A DNA stretch of 64,000 nucleotides from Scenedesmus sp. PABB004 (taxonomy: Eukaryota), in contig JABVCE010000041.1 in NCBI GenBank assembly GCA_014905635.1, positions 124,001-188,000 of the forward strand, written 5' to 3'. The notes under the pieces were generated by a model, which did no database searches, was not told where the DNA came from, and saw only the letters and a program-made list of their open reading frames with translations. Shown here piece after piece: positions 2,394 to 10,775 of this stretch; within the stretch, counting starts at the first letter, position 1; the number at the start of each line of letters is the position of its first letter. A program made the position numbers and the translations under genes.

Positions 2394-5300
2394 GCCTGAC
2401 CAGCGCGGCAGGGCCCTCCCTGACGAGCAGGCGGGCGCCCCGGCGGCCCGCACCCGGCGCTGGGCAGCGGCAGCAATGCATTGCTGGGGTGAGCGCGCGC
2501 TGTGGCAGCGGCGGCAGCGGCGGCGGCGGCAGCGGCGGCAGCGGCGGCGGCGGCAGCGGCGGCGGCGGCGGCGGTGCAGCCCGGCCGCGGGCGGGTCGCC
2601 AGCGCCGCGCCGCGCCGGCGGCGGCGCGCAGCAGCAGTGTGGGGGATCAGCAGGGGGCGCGGCCGCCGCCGCGCCGCGTGCGTCGCGCGCCGCTCACCTG
2701 CTGCCCGGCCGCCCGCCCGCCGTCGCCCCCGCCGCGCCGCCGCAGTCGTCCTACTACCCGCCTGGCAGCCCGCGCCCGCTGTCTGAGCTCATGGCGACGC
2801 CGCAGCCGCCTCCGGGCGCCGCGAGCCCGCCCCCCGCCTCGCCGCCGGCGCGGCCAGCGGCGGCCGGCGCGCCGGGCGCGGCGCCGGCGGCGCCCGCCGC
2901 CGCGCACAGCGCCGCGGCACGCGGCGGGGGGCCGCCGCCGCGCGGCGGCGCCGCCAGCGCCGCCGGCGGCGCGCCGGGCGGCGCGGTGAGCGCCGCGCGC
3001 CGCCCGGGCTCGTCGCCTGGGCCGGGCACGGGCCTGGGCGGCCGCCTCGCGGCGCCGCACGTGCCCGCGCCGGGCGGCGGCGCCGGCCCCGGCGCGTCGT
3101 CGGTCGGCGCGGCGGGCGTGCCGCACCCCTTCACCGAGGCGCCGCCGTACGAGGCGTTTGAGCCGGGCGACAGCGGCTTCAGCGCGCCCACGAGCGCCGA
3201 GGTGGTGACCAGCTCCAGCGGCAGCGTCATGGTCAAGCTCAGCGCCCACTTCAGCGGCCAGGTCGGCGATAAGGTCCTCGTCTGCGGCGGCTGCAAGGCG
3301 CTGGGCAACTGGGAGCCCGACGCCGCGCCGTCGCTCACGTGGGGCGAGGGCGACGTCTGGACGGCCACGCTGGAGCTGCCGCCGGGCACGTTTGAGTTCA
3401 AGGTGCGCCGCAGGACTCGCTGTCGCCGCCACGGCCGCCGCCGCCTGGGCGCGGGGGCACGCACGCTCACGCGCCGCGTCGCCGCGCCGCAGTCGGTCGC
3501 GGTCAAGCCGACCGTGCCGCTGGAGACGCTCGTGTGGGAGCCGGGCAACAACCGCCGCGTCGTCGTGCCGCGCGTGGGCGGGCTGCCGCCGGGCGGCGAC
3601 GAGCTGGACCTGGGCCTGGGCCTGCTGGGCGGCGAGGAGGAGGAGCAGCCCGCGGCGCAGCTCGTGGAGACGAGCGGCGGCAGCACCATGGTCAAGCTCA
3701 CCACCACCTACACCGCGGCGTTTGGGGAGTACCTCAAGGTGGGACAGGGGCGCGCCGCAGGGTTCCGTAGCACGGGGTGTTGTTGACCGGGGGCCGAGGG
3801 TGCACGCCCTGGGGCGGCAGCCCGGCGCGCCGCCGACGCGCGCCGCGCCGCGCCGCGCCGCGCCGCGCCGCGCCGCGCCGCGCCAGGTCGTGGGCGGGCC
3901 CGCGGAGCTGGGCGCGTGGGACGCGGGCGCTGCGCCCGCGCTCACGTGGGGCGAGGGCGACGTCTGGACGGCCACGCTGGAGCTGCCCGCGGGGGAGCAC
4001 GAATTCAAGTACGTGGTCGTGCGCCAGGACGGCCGGCTGGAGTGGGAGCCGGGCGAGAACCGGCGCATCCACGTGCCCCTGCCCGGCCTCGCGGCCGCGC
4101 TCGCGGCGGCCAAGGCCGCGGTCGCCGCGGAGGAGGCGGACGGCGCCGACGGCCGCGCCCGCGCCGCGCCGCCGGGGCGCAAGCTCAGCCCCGCGGAGGT
4201 GTACAAGCGCCAGGAGGCGACGGAGCAGCTGGAGCCGTGGCAGCACGTGGAGCGCGAGGCCGCGGTCGCGGCGGCCGCGGCGGCGGGCGACGGCGACCCG
4301 CCCGCGGCGGCCGCGGGCGAGCCGGCGCCGCCGGCCGTGCCCGCCGGGTGGCGCGAGGTCAAGTTTTCGACGCGCTTCAAGGCCGCGTTTGGGACGTTCC
4401 TCAAGGCCGTGGGCGGGCCGGAGCCGCTGGGCGCGTGGGACGTCGACGCCGCGCCGCCGCTGCAGTGGAGCGAGGGCGACGTCTGGAGCGCGACGCTGCT
4501 GCTGCCGCCGGGGCAGCACGAGTTCAAGGCGAGGGAGGGGGGGGGGGGGGGGGGCGCCGCGCGCTTCACTGCGCCCTGCGCGGCCGCACGCCGACGCCCG
4601 CCGCCGCGCTGACGCCTGCCGCGCTGACGCCCGCCGCCGCGCTGACGCCTGCCGCGCCGACGCCCGCCGCCGCGTCCGCGTCAGCTGATGGTGGTCAACG
4701 CGGACGGCACGTTTGACTGGGAGGCCGGCGACAACCGCACGGTCAGCGTCGAGGCGAGCGCGGCCGCGGGCGAGGCGCCCGGCAGCGTGCTCGTCACGGA
4801 GTGCGAGTACGGCGCGACGGGTGTGACGTCGAGCGTGTGGGCGTCGGTGGACGAGGTCGAGGCGGCGCCGGCGCCGGCGGAGGAGGCCGCGGCGCCGGAG
4901 CAGGCGGCGGCGCCCGCGGCGCCGCCGGCCGAGGCGGCGCCGGTCGCGCCGGAGGAGTGGTACGCCGCGCAGCGCGCCAGGCAGGCCGAGGCGGCCGAGG
5001 CGGCCGCGGCGGCCGCGGCGGCCGCGGCGCCGCCGCCGCCCGCGCCGCCCGCGCCGGCCGCGCCGCCGGCGTCGCCGGCGCCGCCGCGGCCGCTGCAGCC
5101 GCTGGACGCGGTGGTCAAGGTCTTCAAGGACCGCTTCGCGCCGCGCCCGCGCCCGCCCGCGCCCGCGCCGGCGGCGGCGGCCGACGCTGGCGCCGGCGAG
5201 GCGTCGCCGGCGGGGTCGCCGACGGGCTCGGCCGACGAGGACGGCGGCGAGGCGGGGCTGGGCGGGCGCTTTGCGTCCGTCATTGCCTCGCGGCGCGGCG

Positions 5301-6806
5301 GCGAGCCGGGCGGGCCGGCGGTGCTGTTTGTGGACCCGCCGGCGCCCGGGCCGACGCCGCCCTGGGAGCAGGTGCCCGAGGGCGGCGCCAGCGCCGCGCC
5401 GGAGCAGCAGCAGCCCGGCGGCGCGCGCGGCGACGGGGGCGACGCGCCGGAGCGCTTTGCGTCCCAGATCGCGGCGGCGCGGTCACGCCAGACCTCGCCC
5501 GTGCGCGGCGCGCGCGACGCCGGCGCGCAGCGCGGCAGCTGGCGCGCGTCGCCCACGCCGCCAGAGCCGGCGCCAGAGGCGCCCCCCGCGGCGCCCCCCG
5601 CCGGCCAGGAGGGCGACCGCTGGGCCGGCTTCAACTGGCGCCGCAGCGAGCCGGAGCAGCAGCAGGAGGCGCCACGCAAGAGCGGGAGCTGGAACCTGTT
5701 TGGCTGGGGCAGCAAGGCCGAGCCCGAGGCGCCCCCGCAGCGGGAGCAGCAGCCGCCGGCGGAGGACCGGTGGGCCGGCTTCAACTGGCGCCGCGAGCAG
5801 CCGGCGGCCGAGCCGGAGCCGCCGCGCCAGGCTGAGCAGCAGCCGGCGGCGGAGGACCGATGGGCCGGCTTCAACTGGCGCCGCGAGCAGCCGGCGGCCG
5901 AGCCGGAGCCGCCGCGCCAGGCTGAGCAGCAGCCGGCGACGGAGGACCGATGGGCCGGCTTCAACTGGCGCCGCGAGCAGCCGGCGGCCGAGCCGGAGCC
6001 GCCGCGCCAGGCTGAGCAGCAGCCGGCGGCGGAGGACCGGTGGGCCGGCTTCAACTGGCGCCGCGAGCAGCCGGCGGCCGAGCCGGAGCCGCCGCGCCAG
6101 GCTGAGCAGCAGCCGGCGGCGGAGGACCGATGGGCCGGCTTCAACTGGCGCCGCGAGCAGCCGGCGGCCGAGCCGGAGCCGCCGCGCCAGGCTGAGCAGC
6201 AGCCGGCGGCGGAGGACCGATGGGCCGGCTTCAACTGGCGCCGCGAGCAGCCGGCGGCCGAGCCGGAGCCGCCGCGCCAGGCTGAGCAGCAGCCGGCGGC
6301 GGAGGACCGATGGGCCGGCTTCAACTGGCGCCGCGAGCAGCCGGCGGCCGAGCCGGAGCCGCCGCGCCAGGCTGAGCAGCAGCCGGCGGCGGAGGACCGA
6401 TGGGCCGGCTTCAACTGGCGCCGCGAGCAGCCGGCGGCCGAGCCGGAGCCGCCGCGCCAGGCTGAGCAGCAGCCGGCGGCGGAGGACCGGTGGGCCGGCT
6501 TCAACTGGCGCCGCGACTCGGCAGACGAGCCCGAGGCTGAGGCCGGGGCGCCGCAGCAGCGCCAGGATGCTGAGCCCACCACCGACAGGTGGGCCGGCTT
6601 CACCTGGCGCCGCAGCGACGACGGCAGCGCCGCCGCGGATGGCGGCCGCCCCGTGTCGCCCAGCTGGCGCGCGCCCAGCCCCGTGGGCGAGCCCAGCAGC
6701 AGCAGCAGCAGCAGCGAGCCCAGCAGCGGGCGCTTCTCCAAGTTCACTGACGGCAGCAGCTGGCGCAGCGCCTCGCCGGCGCCGCCGCCGCGCGAGGCGA
6801 CCGCGC

Positions 6807-6841
<35 letters not shown>

Positions 6842-9469
6842 CCGCGCTGGGAGCGCACCTGGAAGCGCGCGGCGCCCGAGCCGGAGCCGGAGCCCGCGCC
6901 CGCGCCCGAGCCGGCGCCGCGGCGCGACGAGCCCGGCGCCGCCGCCGCGGGCGGGCGCTTTGCCGGCTACGTCGCGCGGGGCGGCGGCGCGCGGGGCGGC
7001 AGCAGCTGGGACGCCAAGGAGGCGGGCGGCGGGGGCGGCGACTACCTGTACCAGCTTGGGCGCAGCGACTACAACACCAACGTCGACGCGGGGCAGAACA
7101 GCGACATGATCGACTACCTCTTCACAGGTGTGTCGGCGGGCGCGTGGGTGGGTGGGTGGGTGGGTGGGCGTGTGTGTGTGTGTGGGTGGGCGTGTGTGTG
7201 TGTGTGTGTGTGTGGTGTGCGGGGGAGGGGGGGGGACAGAGGGAGCGCAGAGGGAGGGGCACAGGGGGGAGGCGGGCCCACCGCGCGCCGCCGCCGCCGC
7301 TGACGCGCCGCACGCCCGGCGCCGCGCCCGCAGGCAACGTGCTGGGCCACAAGACCGACATCGCCGACGGCAGCCTGCGCGGGTGGGAGGCGCGGACGCT
7401 GAACAACATCGTGGGCGACTACTACATCGCGCCCGTCTTCATGGAGCGCGTCGCGGTGAGGGGGGGGGGTGGTGGTGCGAGCACCGGGCGCCGCCGCCGC
7501 CGCGCAGGGCCCGCCACGCGTGCGCCGCGCTGCCTCGTGGCGAGCGGGGAGGGGGGCAGGGGGAGGTGGTGGGGGCGCCCCGCGCGCGCCGGCGCCGCCG
7601 CCGGCGGGCGTGCAGGCGCGCGCGCGCGCCGTTTCTAGTCCTCGACAAGTCCTTGACAAGTCCTCGACTGCCCCCCCCCCACCCCACCCCCCCCACCGTG
7701 CCAGATGCACATCACCAAGAACTACCTCGCCGACCAGGGCGCCATCGACGCGAGCAGCAACGTCCCCCTCATACTCGGCATATGGGGGCCAAAGGGGTGC
7801 GGCAAGACCTTCCAGGCGCGGAGCCGCGCGGCGGCGGGGGCGGCGCCCGCGCCGCGCGCGGCCGCGCCGCCGCCCCCTGCCGCGCCCCCTCCCGCACGCA
7901 CCGCGCGCGCCCTCACCCACCCGCCCGCCCGCCCCCCAGACCGAGCTGGCGTTCAAGAAGCTCGGCGTGCAGCCGGTCGTCATGAGCGCGGGCGAGCTGG
8001 AGAGCGAGAGCGCGGGCCAGCCGGGTGCGGCGCGCGGCGCACGGCGCGCGGCGGGGCCGCGCGAGCGCGCGCGTGCTGCACCCGGCGCCGCGCGTCACGC
8101 GCCCGCTCGCCTGCCGCGTCGCGCCGCGTGTGCGCGCCTCAGGGCGGCTCATCCGGGAGCGCTACCGCAAGGCGGCCGAGCTGGGCAAGGTGCGGGGCAA
8201 GCTGAGCTGCCTGCTGATCAACGACCTCGACGCCGGCATCGGGCGCTTCGGCAACACCCAGGCGCGGCGGCGGCGCCGCGGCGGCAGCGGCGGCGGCGGC
8301 GCGGGCTTGCGCAGCCAGCGGCTGCTGCGTGCCTGTGTGGGCGCGCGGCATGCCCCTCTCTCTCCCTCTTGCTCTCCCTCTCTCTCCCGCCTCCCTCACT
8401 GTCTCACCCTCACCCCCCCCCTGGCCCTCCCTCCCTCCCCTCCCTCCCCCTCCCGTCGCAGTGCACGGTGAACAACCAGATCGTGATCGGGACGCTCATG
8501 AACATCTGCGACGACCCCAACCGCGTCTCGCTCGGCGCGGGGTGGCGCGAGAACGACACCATACGCCGCGTGCCCATCATCGTCACAGGCGCGCGCGCCG
8601 CTTGCGCCGCCGCCGCCACGCCGCCTTTTGCACCCCTCACAACCCCCTCAAACCCTGCCCACCCTTAACCCCTCTGCCCCCTCCCTAAACCCTGCCGCCC
8701 CCCCCCTCCACCCACCCAGGCAACGACTTCTCCACCCTCTACGCCCCCCTCATCCGTGACGGCCGCATGGACAAGTTCTACTGGACGCCCAGCAGGGACG
8801 ACATCGTCGCCATCGTGCACCAGGCGCGCCCGCGGCGCGGCCAGCCGCGCGCGCGGCGGGCCGGACGGCGCGCGCCGTCGCGCTGCCTCCCACCCTCTCA
8901 CCCGCGCCCCCTCCTCTCCCGCGCCGCGCCGCGCCGGTCCGGTCCCCCCAGATGTACAAGGAGGACGGGCTGTCGCGCGGCGACGTGTGCGCCCTGGTCG
9001 ACACGTTCAGCAACCAGGCGCTCGACTTTTTCGGCGCCCTGCGCGCGGCGACGTACGACGGCCAGATCCGGGAGTGGATGGCCGACGTCGCGGGTGCGGC
9101 GCGGCGCGGCCTCGACGCGCTGCACCGCCGCGCCGCCGCGCCTTGGCTGAGCGCCCGCCCGCCTGCCCGCCCGCCCGCCCGCCCGTGGCGCGCCGCCCCT
9201 GGCGCGCAGGCGCGCCGCTGCACGCCGCGGGCAGCGGGTCGATCAGCGAGGTCAACCGCCGCCTGCTGAGCCAGCAGGGCGTGCCCGAGTTTGAGCCCGC
9301 GGCCATCAGCCTCGACGGCCTCGTCGCGGAGGGGCGGCGGCTCGTCGCGGAGCAGGAGCTGGTCAACAGCAGCAAGCTGAGCGAGGCCTACATGCGCGGC
9401 GTCGCGTGGGGCGAGCGCGACGCGGCGGGCGGGTGGGCCAGCAGCAACGAGACCTCCCTCGACGACTGA
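2394..9469 (+). CDS. Multi-exon fusion protein: probable transit peptide, 3x CBM20, low-complexity linker with 30-aa repeats, Rubisco activase-like AAA+ ATPase. 5' start uncertain (may lie near 2168)
   Basis: Three CBM20 copies (LG[N/A]W..AAP.L.W.EGDVW.ATL.LP.G..EFK...WE.G.NR) at about 3226-3570, 3685-4080 and 4350-4760. One open exon (4685-7127) runs from CBM20 #3 into the Rca N-terminus. Rca motifs across exons 7334-7455, 7705-7815, 7940-8024, 8143-8261, 8462-8588, 8720-8823, 8952-9093, 9210-9469: VPLILGIWGPKGCGKT (Walker A), MSAGELES, CLLINDLDAG (Walker B), TVNNQIVIGTLMNI, TGNDFSTLYAPLIRDGRMDKFYW. Confidence 0.88.
5761..6514 (+). repeat. Coding tandem repeat, 90-bp unit (EDRWAGFNWRREQPAAEPEPPRQAEQQPAA), 8 full copies plus a partial ninth
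   Basis: Units start at 5761, 5851, 5941, 6031, 6121, 6211, 6301, 6391 and 6481, nearly identical and in frame. Diverged motif copies occur near 5615 and 6583. Confidence 0.97.
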
Positions 9470-10337
9470 GGCAGGGCCCGGCCGGGCGCGGCGGCGGCGC
9501 TGCACGGCGCGGCGGCGGCGGCGGACCGGCGCGGGGGGCGGCGAGGGCGGGGCGGGGAACAGGCGGGCCGGCGCGCGCGCGCCACTTTTGATCAACCTGA
9601 CTCGGCAGCGGCGGCGGCATTCGCAAGGCGGGTGGGCCGCAGTCGGGGGGCGCCCGGCAGCAGGGCGCGCCCTGGGTGCCTGCTCTGGTCAAGAAATCGG
9701 GCCGCGGCGGCGCCGCGGCGCGCGCGGTGCCTGCCTGGCGGCGGGTGCGGGCGGCGCGTGCCGCTGCTGGTGGTATGCTGGGCTGTGTGCTGAGACAGGG
9801 CGGCCCTGCGTGCACCAAAGGGTTCTGGGCTGCGGGCGGGTCGGACCGGACGCCACGGCAACCGCGGCGTGCCCGGCACGCACCCTAAACCGCCAGCCGC
9901 CGCCGGGCAGCGACGACCAGTTCACGCCCCGGCCGCCTCAGCAGCCACCGTGCCGCCGCCGCAGAGCGCGCGCCGGCCTGCCCCGCCGCAGCGCGCCGGC
10001 CCTCCTGCCCCGCCGTCGCCTGCGCTCGGCGCCCCGCCGCGCGGCCCCTGCGCTCGCGCACGCGTCCGTGCCGCCCGCGACCAGGCCCGCCAGCCGGCAG
10101 CCCGCCCCAGCACCGCGCCGGTGCGGCCACGCGAGCAGCGGCGGCAGCGGCCGCCCGGGGCGGGCTGCTCTGCAGGCACTGGCGGAGCTCTGATGGCCGT
10201 CCCGTGAGCAGGCAGCGCCCGCAGCGCCCCCCGCGAGGCCCGCCGCGGCTTGACGCCGCCCGCCGCGCCGCGGGCAGCAGCGGCGGCGCAGCGGCGGGCA
10301 GCGGCCCGCGCGCCCGCGTCGCCGCCGGCGCGTGGCC

Positions 10338-10775
10338 ATGGCGCGGCCGGCGTCCGTGGGCCGCAAGGCGGCCAGCGAGACGGAGGACGAGCTGCTGCAG
10401 CGCCGCATCGCGCACGCGCAGTGGCTGGCGGGCCTGCTGTCGGAGCCGGGCTCGACCGCGTCGCTCACGGTCGGCGCGTACGGCGCGCTGCTGGACGAGC
10501 TGCTGCTGGACGTCGCGGTGGAGGCGCACCGCGAGGCGCGCACGGGCGTGCTGCCGCCCGCGCCGCCGCCGCCGCGCGCGCCGCGCCCGCCGCCGGCGGG
10601 CGCGACCGACGCGTTTGGCCAGGTGCACCCCGGCAGCGCGACCGACGTCGTCGTGTGCATGAACTGCGGGCGCAAGGCCGCGGCCGGCCGGTTCGCGTAC
10701 CACCTCGAAAAGTGCCTCGGCAAGGGCCGCACCCAGGGCGCCGGCGCGCGCACGTCGCGCCGCACCGGCGCGTGA
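10338..10775 (+). CDS. SGF11: SAGA deubiquitination module subunit Sgf11 (single exon)
   Basis: Helix LLDELLLDVAVEAHR followed by the Sgf11-type zinc finger CMNCGRKAAAGRFAYHLEKCLGKGR. Confidence 0.88.
   Translation: MARPASVGRKAASETEDELLQRRIAHAQWLAGLLSEPGSTASLTVGAYGALLDELLLDVAVEAHREARTGVLPPAPPPPRAPRPPPAGATDAFGQVHPGSATDVVVCMNCGRKAAAGRFAYHLEKCLGKGRTQGAGARTSRRTGA

Follow-up and report, generated by a model that had tools for sequence, protein, structure and literature searches.

The stretch analysed here (the window) comprises 64,000 nucleotides from Scenedesmus sp. PABB004 (assembly GCA_014905635.1, contig JABVCE010000041.1, positions 124,001 to 188,000 of the forward strand), and at approximately 2394–9469 its + strand carries a gene of at least 13 exons that combines three CBM20 domains, a disordered tether and a complete AAA+ module of the Rubisco activase (Rca) type. 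As judged from the sequence, it is a single nuclear gene, from a chlorophyte of very high GC content that is probably sphaeroplealean, with a predicted product of approximately 1,700–1,800 amino acids (aa) in four parts. The gene was built from coordinate-printed reading frames, in-frame GT/GC-AG junctions and colinearity with homologs, including P0282, a transcriptome-derived ortholog from a related alga, which shares 80% identity over model residues 111–327 and is colinear across three junctions, one of them new (donor 2489, acceptor 2745). The features of the gene are the following.

2394..2488, + strand: 3′ portion of a further coding exon upstream, ending in ...CIAG; candidate in-frame ATGs at 2051 and 2168; GT donor at 2489; junction colinear with P0282
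2489..2745, + strand: GT-AG intron with a GGC-rich microsatellite, placed by ortholog colinearity
2746..3402, + strand: exon with an Ala/Pro/Gly-rich N-region, then the N-part of the first CBM20 (~3229–3402); CBM_20 4.3e-9, 80% identity to P0282
3493..3738, + strand: exon with the C-part of the first CBM20 and the N-part of the second, separated by an acidic spacer; in-frame junctions, colinear with P0282
3887..4528, + strand: exon with the C-part of the second CBM20 (3887–4078), a spacer and the N-part of the third (~4352–4528); CBM_20 4.7e-22 in two stretches
4685..7127, + strand: long exon with the C-part of the third CBM20 (~4685–4800), the disordered tether and the Rca-like N-domain (7007–7127); no stops, codon-position signal, match to P0015
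5716..6516, + strand: tandem array of a 90-bp unit, 8.9 copies with 97% matches, giving 30-aa units with one DRWAGFNWRR sticker each
5621..6620, + strand: span of all 11 DRWAGF[N/T]WRR copies, with one degenerate copy 5′ and one 3′ of the array
7334..7455, + strand: exon with the end of the Rca-like N-domain and the start of the AAA+ module; junctions and homolog alignment
7705..7815, + strand: exon with Walker A (GPKGCGKT, ~7786–7809); alignment
7940..8024, + strand: exon with pore loop 1; alignment
8143..8261, + strand: exon with Walker B (LLINDLDAG, ~8211–8237); alignment
8462..8588, + strand: exon with pore loop 2 at its start (codon 8462–8464 is Cys; Tyr in canonical Rca) and sensor 1 at its end; alignment
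8720..8823, + strand: exon with the arginine fingers (PLIRDGRM); alignment
8952..9100, + strand: exon with the Rca helical subdomain and sensor 2; PF21228 1.6e-17
9235..9469, + strand: last exon, encoding the remainder of the helical subdomain and the C-terminal tail, with the stop codon at 9467–9469; of all junctions, the one leading into it (GC donor 9101, acceptor 9234) is placed with the least certainty

The start of the protein probably lies upstream of the first CBM20 exon. Translation from the ATG at 2791 gives 1664 aa without internal stops, and this start was ruled out because the alignment with P0282 extends further upstream; the ATGs at 2051 and 2168 give proteins of 1825 and 1786 aa, respectively. 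A preliminary description of this DNA had set the left limit of the gene at 2394, a position that falls inside the upstream exon, and the intron at 2489–2745, which is supported by P0282, is an addition to it. The N-terminus is rich in Arg, Ala and Pro with few acidic residues, and is compatible with a plastid transit peptide. Half of the model introns (6/12) are of the GC-AG type, typically with cagGCGCG at the donor, which is an unusually high share in a homology-guided model. Simple repeats occur within the first modeled intron (a GGC/GGCAGC microsatellite at 2504–2625, with periods of 9, 15, and 24 bases) and right at the donor site of the next intron after the long exon (a GT/GGGT-rich repeat at 7128–7223).

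The Pfam profiles were run on the 12 exon translations separately, with the gathering score as cut-off. CBM_20 (PF00686; cut-off 23.3) was recovered above this score in exon 2791–3402 (36.5 bits, profile positions 3–65) and, in the two stretches listed above, in exon 3887–4528 (78.0 bits), bearing out the domains proposed previously. An intron interrupts each of the three CBM20 domains, and the reading frame is preserved across the GT/GC-AG junction between the two halves. The ortholog P0282 scores 82.7 bits with the same profile, again in two stretches; its tryptophans (LGNW, vW, and W-E-x-G-x-N) align with those of the solved CBM20 structures 7czj and 1ac0, and all three copies of the window gene have them as well. 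These Trp residues belong to the glucan-binding sites of CBM20, and the modules would be expected to bind starch. The Tetradesmus protein P0283 (1501 aa, with a CBM20) was considered as a fused ortholog and rejected, as it lacks an Rca part and shows one matching CBM20-like region only.

The point on which the fusion depends is the long exon, in which the preliminary description had placed the end of the third CBM20, the linker, and the beginning of the Rca part in one frame. It should be noted that the first 12 kb of the window have a GC content of 70–89%, and open reading frames of 650–760 aa are present in other frames too; long open frames alone are therefore no evidence, and it is the codon-position signal that counts. 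The translation of 4685–7126 is 814 aa long, without a single stop and with Met solely at residues 2 and 808. Its GC content at codon positions 1/2/3 is 0.81/0.66/0.96, the third-position value (GC3) staying at 0.93–0.99 in all nine 150-codon blocks; the corresponding values are 0.72/0.55/0.98 in the other exons and a flat 0.83 in the introns. A phase scan likewise follows one frame from approximately 3900 to 6600, with a weaker signal from there to the end of the exon. At that end, the Rca-like N-domain (SSWDAKEAGG...) begins at 7007, and 7007–7129 is matched by residues 59–103 of P0015, a protein with this N-domain. No Met lies between the third CBM20 and the N-domain, and a stand-alone Rca-like protein therefore cannot start here without an unseen 5′ exon. 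The one-frame fusion described earlier thus stands.

For the ATPase part, Pfam was of limited use on short exon pieces: five of the 12 gave no match, two gave matches at chance level, and the long exon gave a low-complexity match only (Trypan_PARP, E = 0.0043; 17.5 bits, where the cut-off is 100), which was rejected. The helical subdomain PF21228 was found in 8952–9098 (1.6e-17) and weakly in 9236–9466 (0.099). As the short Rca exons are mostly silent, the module was confirmed by aligning the spliced model instead, which is colinear with 9 of 19 Rca-type proteins at 63–83% identity over 281–400 aa. The C-terminal 390 aa share 63–65% identity over 379–400 aa with six stand-alone proteins (404–505 aa) and 79–83% identity with three fragments, and P0015 matches the Rca structures of Arabidopsis, tobacco and Nostoc with E-values from 3.6e-88 (Arabidopsis) to 1.1e-79. 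A tblastn search found one Rca-type locus only in the 64-kb window. Together with the Pfam results and the in-frame junctions, this alignment places the three CBM20 domains, the linker and the Rca module in one gene, as had been proposed.

Phylogenetic analysis of 59 sequences (maximum likelihood with a quick search, SH-like approximate likelihood ratio support, midpoint root) placed the module within a green-algal Rca-like clade of 19 sequences (support 98), which includes proteins from Coccomyxa and Chloropicon as well as forms fused to rhodanese. The canonical Rca proteins of cyanobacteria, chlorophytes and streptophytes form a separate clade of 20 sequences (support 98), and six land-plant Rca-like sequences, probably of the At1g73110 type, form another (support 99) that does not group with the algal clade; the branching order of the three clades is not resolved by the tree. 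Against PF21228, canonical Rca proteins reach approximately 130 bits and proteins of the algal Rca-like clade 49–79 bits. The module also has the N-domain signature of this family, SSWDAKEAGG...DYLYxLG...IDxLFTG. By sequence, then, the ATPase is a member of a divergent green-algal Rca-like clade, not a canonical Rca. The suggestion that it lies closer to an Rca-like paralog lineage than to canonical Rca is supported by the tree, whereas its proposed likeness to the At1g73110 type is weakened.

In the alignment, the module retains the conserved Walker A and Walker B motifs, pore loop 1, sensor 1, the arginine fingers, and sensor 2. The Tyr of pore loop 2 is replaced by Cys in the window gene; it is present in all four canonical sequences aligned there and is non-aromatic in all nine Rca-like ones. 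In tobacco Rca, the mutation of this residue (Y188A) is reported to leave the ATPase activity intact and to abolish Rubisco activation (PMC5437159). With the ATPase motifs intact and this Tyr absent, the module is probably an active ATPase, but the label of an activase, as used in the preliminary description, is not justified and that function is doubtful. We found no dedicated study on the function of the Rca-like family; judged by title and abstract, the papers naming At1g73110 appear to be omics studies or unrelated. Sphaeroplealean algae also keep a canonical Rca (P0079 and P0087).

The tether between the CBM20 domains and the N-domain is approximately 700 aa long. Residues 61–770 of the long-exon translation consist of 21.4% Ala, 18.2% Pro, 11.8% Glu, and 10% Arg, and this composition and the 11 DRWAGF[N/T]WRR copies agree with the Pro/Ala/Glu-rich linker with a Trp-Arg repeat first described for this locus. 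An AlphaFold2 prediction from the single sequence, covering 365 aa of the tether, gave a mean predicted local distance difference test score of 47.7 and no secondary structure. The first eight units of the 90-bp array differ at three sites only, indicating that the array is young or homogenized. A six-frame scan of the 64-kb window revealed no DRWAGF[N/T]WRR motif beyond the 11 copies, and an ESM Atlas search with the repeat region returned no usable match. GRFAS-type and SWR[SA]xP-type motifs are scattered on both flanks of the array. Expressed as two motif families, the tether contains 16 instances of [GDSNE]R[WF][AS] and 13 of [SGNP]W[RK][SAR], and neither count was reached in 2000 composition-preserving shuffles.

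To interrogate the distribution of the combination, we searched for it elsewhere from both sides. Among the matches listed for long (568–2000 aa) Rca-containing proteins with precomputed Pfam annotation, PF00686 occurred in 0 of 120, and none of the 150 top-ranking representatives retrieved from a library of 1.84 billion proteins was longer than 927 aa. Pfam detected CBM20 in none of 13 Rca-type proteins taken from the searches, and a search from the CBM20 side returned three proteins, none with an Rca part. The CBM20 part and tether had no tblastn match in 80 metagenome loci (965 kb), which are distant relatives; this absence says little on near relatives, because most of these loci are intron-less picoalgal or cyanobacterial genes and the nearest relatives with introns, among them the 80.9-kb contig of P0011, were not reached. 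No published description of a CBM20–Rca fusion was found in the literature searched (main texts, with few subscription journals covered), and the earlier statement that the architecture is undescribed holds within these domain-architecture and literature searches. A different partner is found in 16 of the 120 listed long Rca proteins, which carry a C-terminal rhodanese domain (P0024, P0025, P0031–P0033, P0039, P0041, P0053, P0055, P0057, P0058, P0075, P0077, P0078, P0084, and P0138), some with a WW domain; many of the cyanobacterial ones contain an RbcS-like domain. P0024 and P0025 belong to the same Rca-like clade as the window gene, and rhodanese proteins have been reported to reside in the pyrenoid matrix in Chlamydomonas and Chlorella.

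The motifs of the tether recur in canonical Rca proteins. In Tetradesmus obliquus, the canonical Rca (P0079, 1107 aa) ends in a C-terminal tail of 600–700 aa (residues 401–1107), as does that of a relative (P0090, 1023 aa; residues 416–1023), which is encoded on a contig of 3386 nt whose length suggests an intron-less, transcript-like source. Both Ser/Ala/Pro-rich tails contain GDRW[AS]xY or GRFASY together with SWR[SA]xP. In a scan of 285 sequences (284 fetched proteins and the window gene model), only the window protein, P0079, and P0090 contained at least two of each motif family. The observed counts were reached by none of 2000 composition-preserving shuffles in five of six region-by-motif tests and by one in the sixth, a significance that is overstated because the patterns were drawn up with the data already in view. 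The tails alternate the short W/R motifs with a repeated, folded-looking unit of approximately 60 aa (with a weak Rho_N/SAP-like match) and end in ...SRW; no description of an Rca tail of this kind was found in the literature searched. Two further long canonical Rca models, P0124 and P0087, were examined as carriers and rejected: their N-terminal extensions are free of stickers, and they may be merged gene models.

Canonical Rca has been described as a pyrenoid-matrix protein in Chlamydomonas and Ulva, and the motifs common to the tether and the canonical Rca tails suggest a lineage-specific sticker for the pyrenoid or for Rubisco. There is also a likeness between the sticker core RWAG[F] and an N-terminal segment of canonical Rca in chlorophytes (RWAG[M], RWSAM and RWKGM), which holds the Trp aligned with that of the N-domain. 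The Rca N-domain is reported to be needed for Rubisco engagement, and the title of one reference names Trp16. A relationship between RWAG[F] and RWAG[M] is put forward here as a post hoc hypothesis involving five residues.

Among known systems, a CBM20 followed by a disordered region with Rubisco-binding motifs is the reported format of starch–matrix tethers in Chlamydomonas and Chlorella, and Crans et al. predict such CBM20 tether proteins in other lineages. The comparison with SAGA1 and SAGA2 of Chlamydomonas drawn in the preliminary description is apt, and PMST of Chlorella sorokiniana is closer still: it is described with one CBM20 and a disordered region with six Rubisco-binding motifs, and links the condensate to starch in vitro. 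All of these share with the window gene an N-terminal CBM20 and a long region with multiple copies of a short motif, which is a Rubisco-binding sticker in the known tethers and a candidate one in the window gene; going by their descriptions, the window gene is set apart by three CBM20 domains, a different sticker, and a C-terminal Rca-like AAA+ module that none of them has. The reported multi-CBM20 protein EPOS1/LCI9, which is located at the pyrenoid periphery of Chlamydomonas and shapes the starch sheath, resembles the CBM20 set of the window gene, but has two CBM20 domains, and neither a sticker tether nor an AAA+ module is mentioned for it in the part of the source consulted.

On the ATPase side, the module shares the AAA+ fold, PF21228, the Walker motifs, arginine fingers, sensor 2, and the N-domain Trp with green-type Rca of plants, algae, and cyanobacteria (PDB 4w5w, 3t15, and 6z1d), from which it differs in its separate clade, in the Cys of pore loop 2, and in being fused rather than stand-alone. 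Within the green-algal Rca-like family (such as P0018/P0019 of Coccomyxa and the rhodanese-fused P0024/P0025) the clade, the N-domain signature, and a pore loop 2 without an aromatic residue are common property, and accessory domains are frequent. The other sizeable members compared are stand-alone proteins of 404–505 aa, have an N-terminal extension without a Pfam domain (P0023 and P0026), or carry the C-terminal rhodanese, whereas the window gene has CBM20 domains and a tether instead of a simple transit peptide. A comparable fused module is the small-subunit-like (SSUL) domain PF00101 of cyanobacterial Rca, found there together with PF21228. The SSUL domain of carboxysomal Rca recruits the motor to the Rubisco compartment. 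In that case the addition is a folded, C-terminal RbcS-like domain, in contrast to the N-terminal CBM20 domains and linear motifs seen here, and PF00101 is absent from all 12 exon translations of the window gene. The canonical Rca proteins P0079 and P0090 share the two motif families of the tether, but have a motor of the canonical clade, carry the motifs in a C-terminal tail interspersed with the folded-looking unit, and lack CBM20.

From these comparisons, the reading we prefer, at about an even chance, is that of a pyrenoid starch–matrix tether carrying an Rca-like ATPase. The protein would be located in the plastid, in the pyrenoid, where the CBM20 modules would hold it on the starch plates. 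The Trp/Arg stickers of the tether (the 11 DRWAGF[N/T]WRR copies and the scattered GRFAS- and SWR[SA]xP-type motifs) would reach into the Rubisco matrix and bind Rubisco weakly and multivalently, as in SAGA1/2 and PMST. The AAA+ module, which is expected to assemble into rings in its family, would act as a hexamer bundling approximately six tethers, with 18 CBM20 domains and 66 core stickers, and would place an ATP-driven remodeler at the interface of starch and matrix.

Several observations weigh against this reading. The junctions of the gene model are guided by homology rather than based on RNA, and the copy number of the 90-bp array could be mis-assembled. In the transcriptome of the related alga, the CBM20 part (P0282) and the ATPase part (P0010/P0001) occur as separate fragments only; P0282 breaks off in an apparent retained intron, and P0010 starts at a Met equivalent to residue 808, and as fragments they neither support nor refute the fusion in that species. 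The nearest full-length relatives of the module (404–505 aa) are stand-alone, the searches revealed no second instance of the CBM20–Rca combination, the conservation of which is thus unproven, and the pore-loop-2 Tyr is missing. The tether has a net acidic charge (112 Asp and Glu versus 80 Lys and Arg), unlike known linkers, which are basic, and its sticker is not predicted to be helical by AlphaFold2. On the scoring scheme for Chlamydomonas Rubisco-binding motifs described in PMC7673724, the 17 W[RK] sites of the model reach at most 2 of 6, and the sticker lacks the heavily weighted aliphatic residue at +4; by its sequence, the repeat is not a Rubisco-binding motif of the Chlamydomonas type.

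One alternative is that no fusion protein exists, either because the two parts were mis-joined through the repeat array or because they form two transcription units. An array with 97% self-identity and a domain combination found nowhere else in our searches are in line with such an artefact, but the reading frame and the GC3 signal continue on both sides of the array, and degenerate stickers and GRFA and SWR motifs flank it on either side, reaching as far as the N-domain of the ATPase, which argues against a mis-join. Two separate transcription units are opposed by the open frame after the third CBM20 and by the missing Met before the conserved N-domain, and the neighboring genes lie well outside:

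1–1287, + strand: 3′ portion of a transporter gene of the ABC-2/ABCG type (PF01061, 5.9e-15); a Pro-rich, intron-like stretch lies at ~600–930, and the gene ends at ~1287
~10335–10769, + strand: small Sgf11 zinc-finger gene (PF08209, 4.7e-14), encoding a subunit of the deubiquitinase module of the SAGA complex

The Sgf11 gene is unrelated to the fusion gene. We consider the artefact very unlikely and the single-gene architecture, with fairly high confidence, as real; the gene would be transcribed as one mRNA. If the fusion is accepted, its Rubisco connection can still be questioned, as the three CBM20 domains point first to starch: a starch-granule protein unrelated to Rubisco might use its Trp-rich repeats to bind glucan or another partner, and its AAA+ module to remodel starch-metabolic proteins or complexes at the granule surface. 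The loss of the canonical pore-loop Tyr, the failure of the repeat on the Chlamydomonas scheme and a motor family without an assigned function (the At1g73110 papers being, by title and abstract, omics or unrelated) are all in line with this, whereas the same motif types on the tail of the Tetradesmus canonical Rca, the client of which is Rubisco, the retention of the Rca N-domain and helical subdomain in the family, and the known tether format of CBM20 plus a disordered sticker region point back to Rubisco, and we regard the granule function as unlikely. Another possibility, in line with the proposal of the preliminary description, is a true activase anchored on starch that reactivates inhibited Rubisco at the pyrenoid periphery; it draws on a full set of AAA+ motifs, on the presence of the N-domain Trp and the entire helical subdomain, on the E-value of P0015 against Arabidopsis Rca, and on the precedent of cyanobacterial Rca-SSUL that an activase may carry a condensate-recruiting module. 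As the module falls outside the canonical clade, lacks the Tyr whose replacement in tobacco (Y188A) abolishes activation, and belongs to an algal group in which P0079 and P0087 represent a canonical Rca retained as well, we deem a true activase distinctly improbable.

Beyond the preferred reading of a starch–matrix tether with an Rca-like ATPase, a more specific and rather speculative version, unlikely as it stands, is that sphaeroplealean algae have a Rubisco-binding sticker of their own, derived from the N-terminal Trp motif of Rca ([G/D]RW[A/S]G/x[M/F/Y], often with SWR[S/A]xP), that the tail of canonical Rca uses it for entry into the pyrenoid, and that the window gene, with 11 tandem copies placed between its three CBM20 modules and an Rca-like ring, encodes an ATP-controlled, hexameric starch–matrix tether. 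If true, this would be the first structural component of a pyrenoid to consume energy.

Tethers consisting of CBM20 and stickers are known; what is new is the AAA+ motor on the tether, and within the searches made this is the first case found of such a motor built into a starch–matrix tether. It suggests that the attachment of the sheath, or the Rubisco at the periphery, could be actively remodeled, and it offers a way to approach the function of the Rca-like paralogs. Pyrenoids are reported to have evolved repeatedly, and lineage-own Rubisco-binding stickers seem to be the rule, being known for the Volvocales, Chlorella and, recently, Ulva; the window gene and the Tetradesmus Rca tail provide a concrete candidate that can be tested as the sticker of a further large order of green algae. 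Its modular parts, the CBM20 domains, the sticker array, and the motor, are relevant to the building of pyrenoids in crops.

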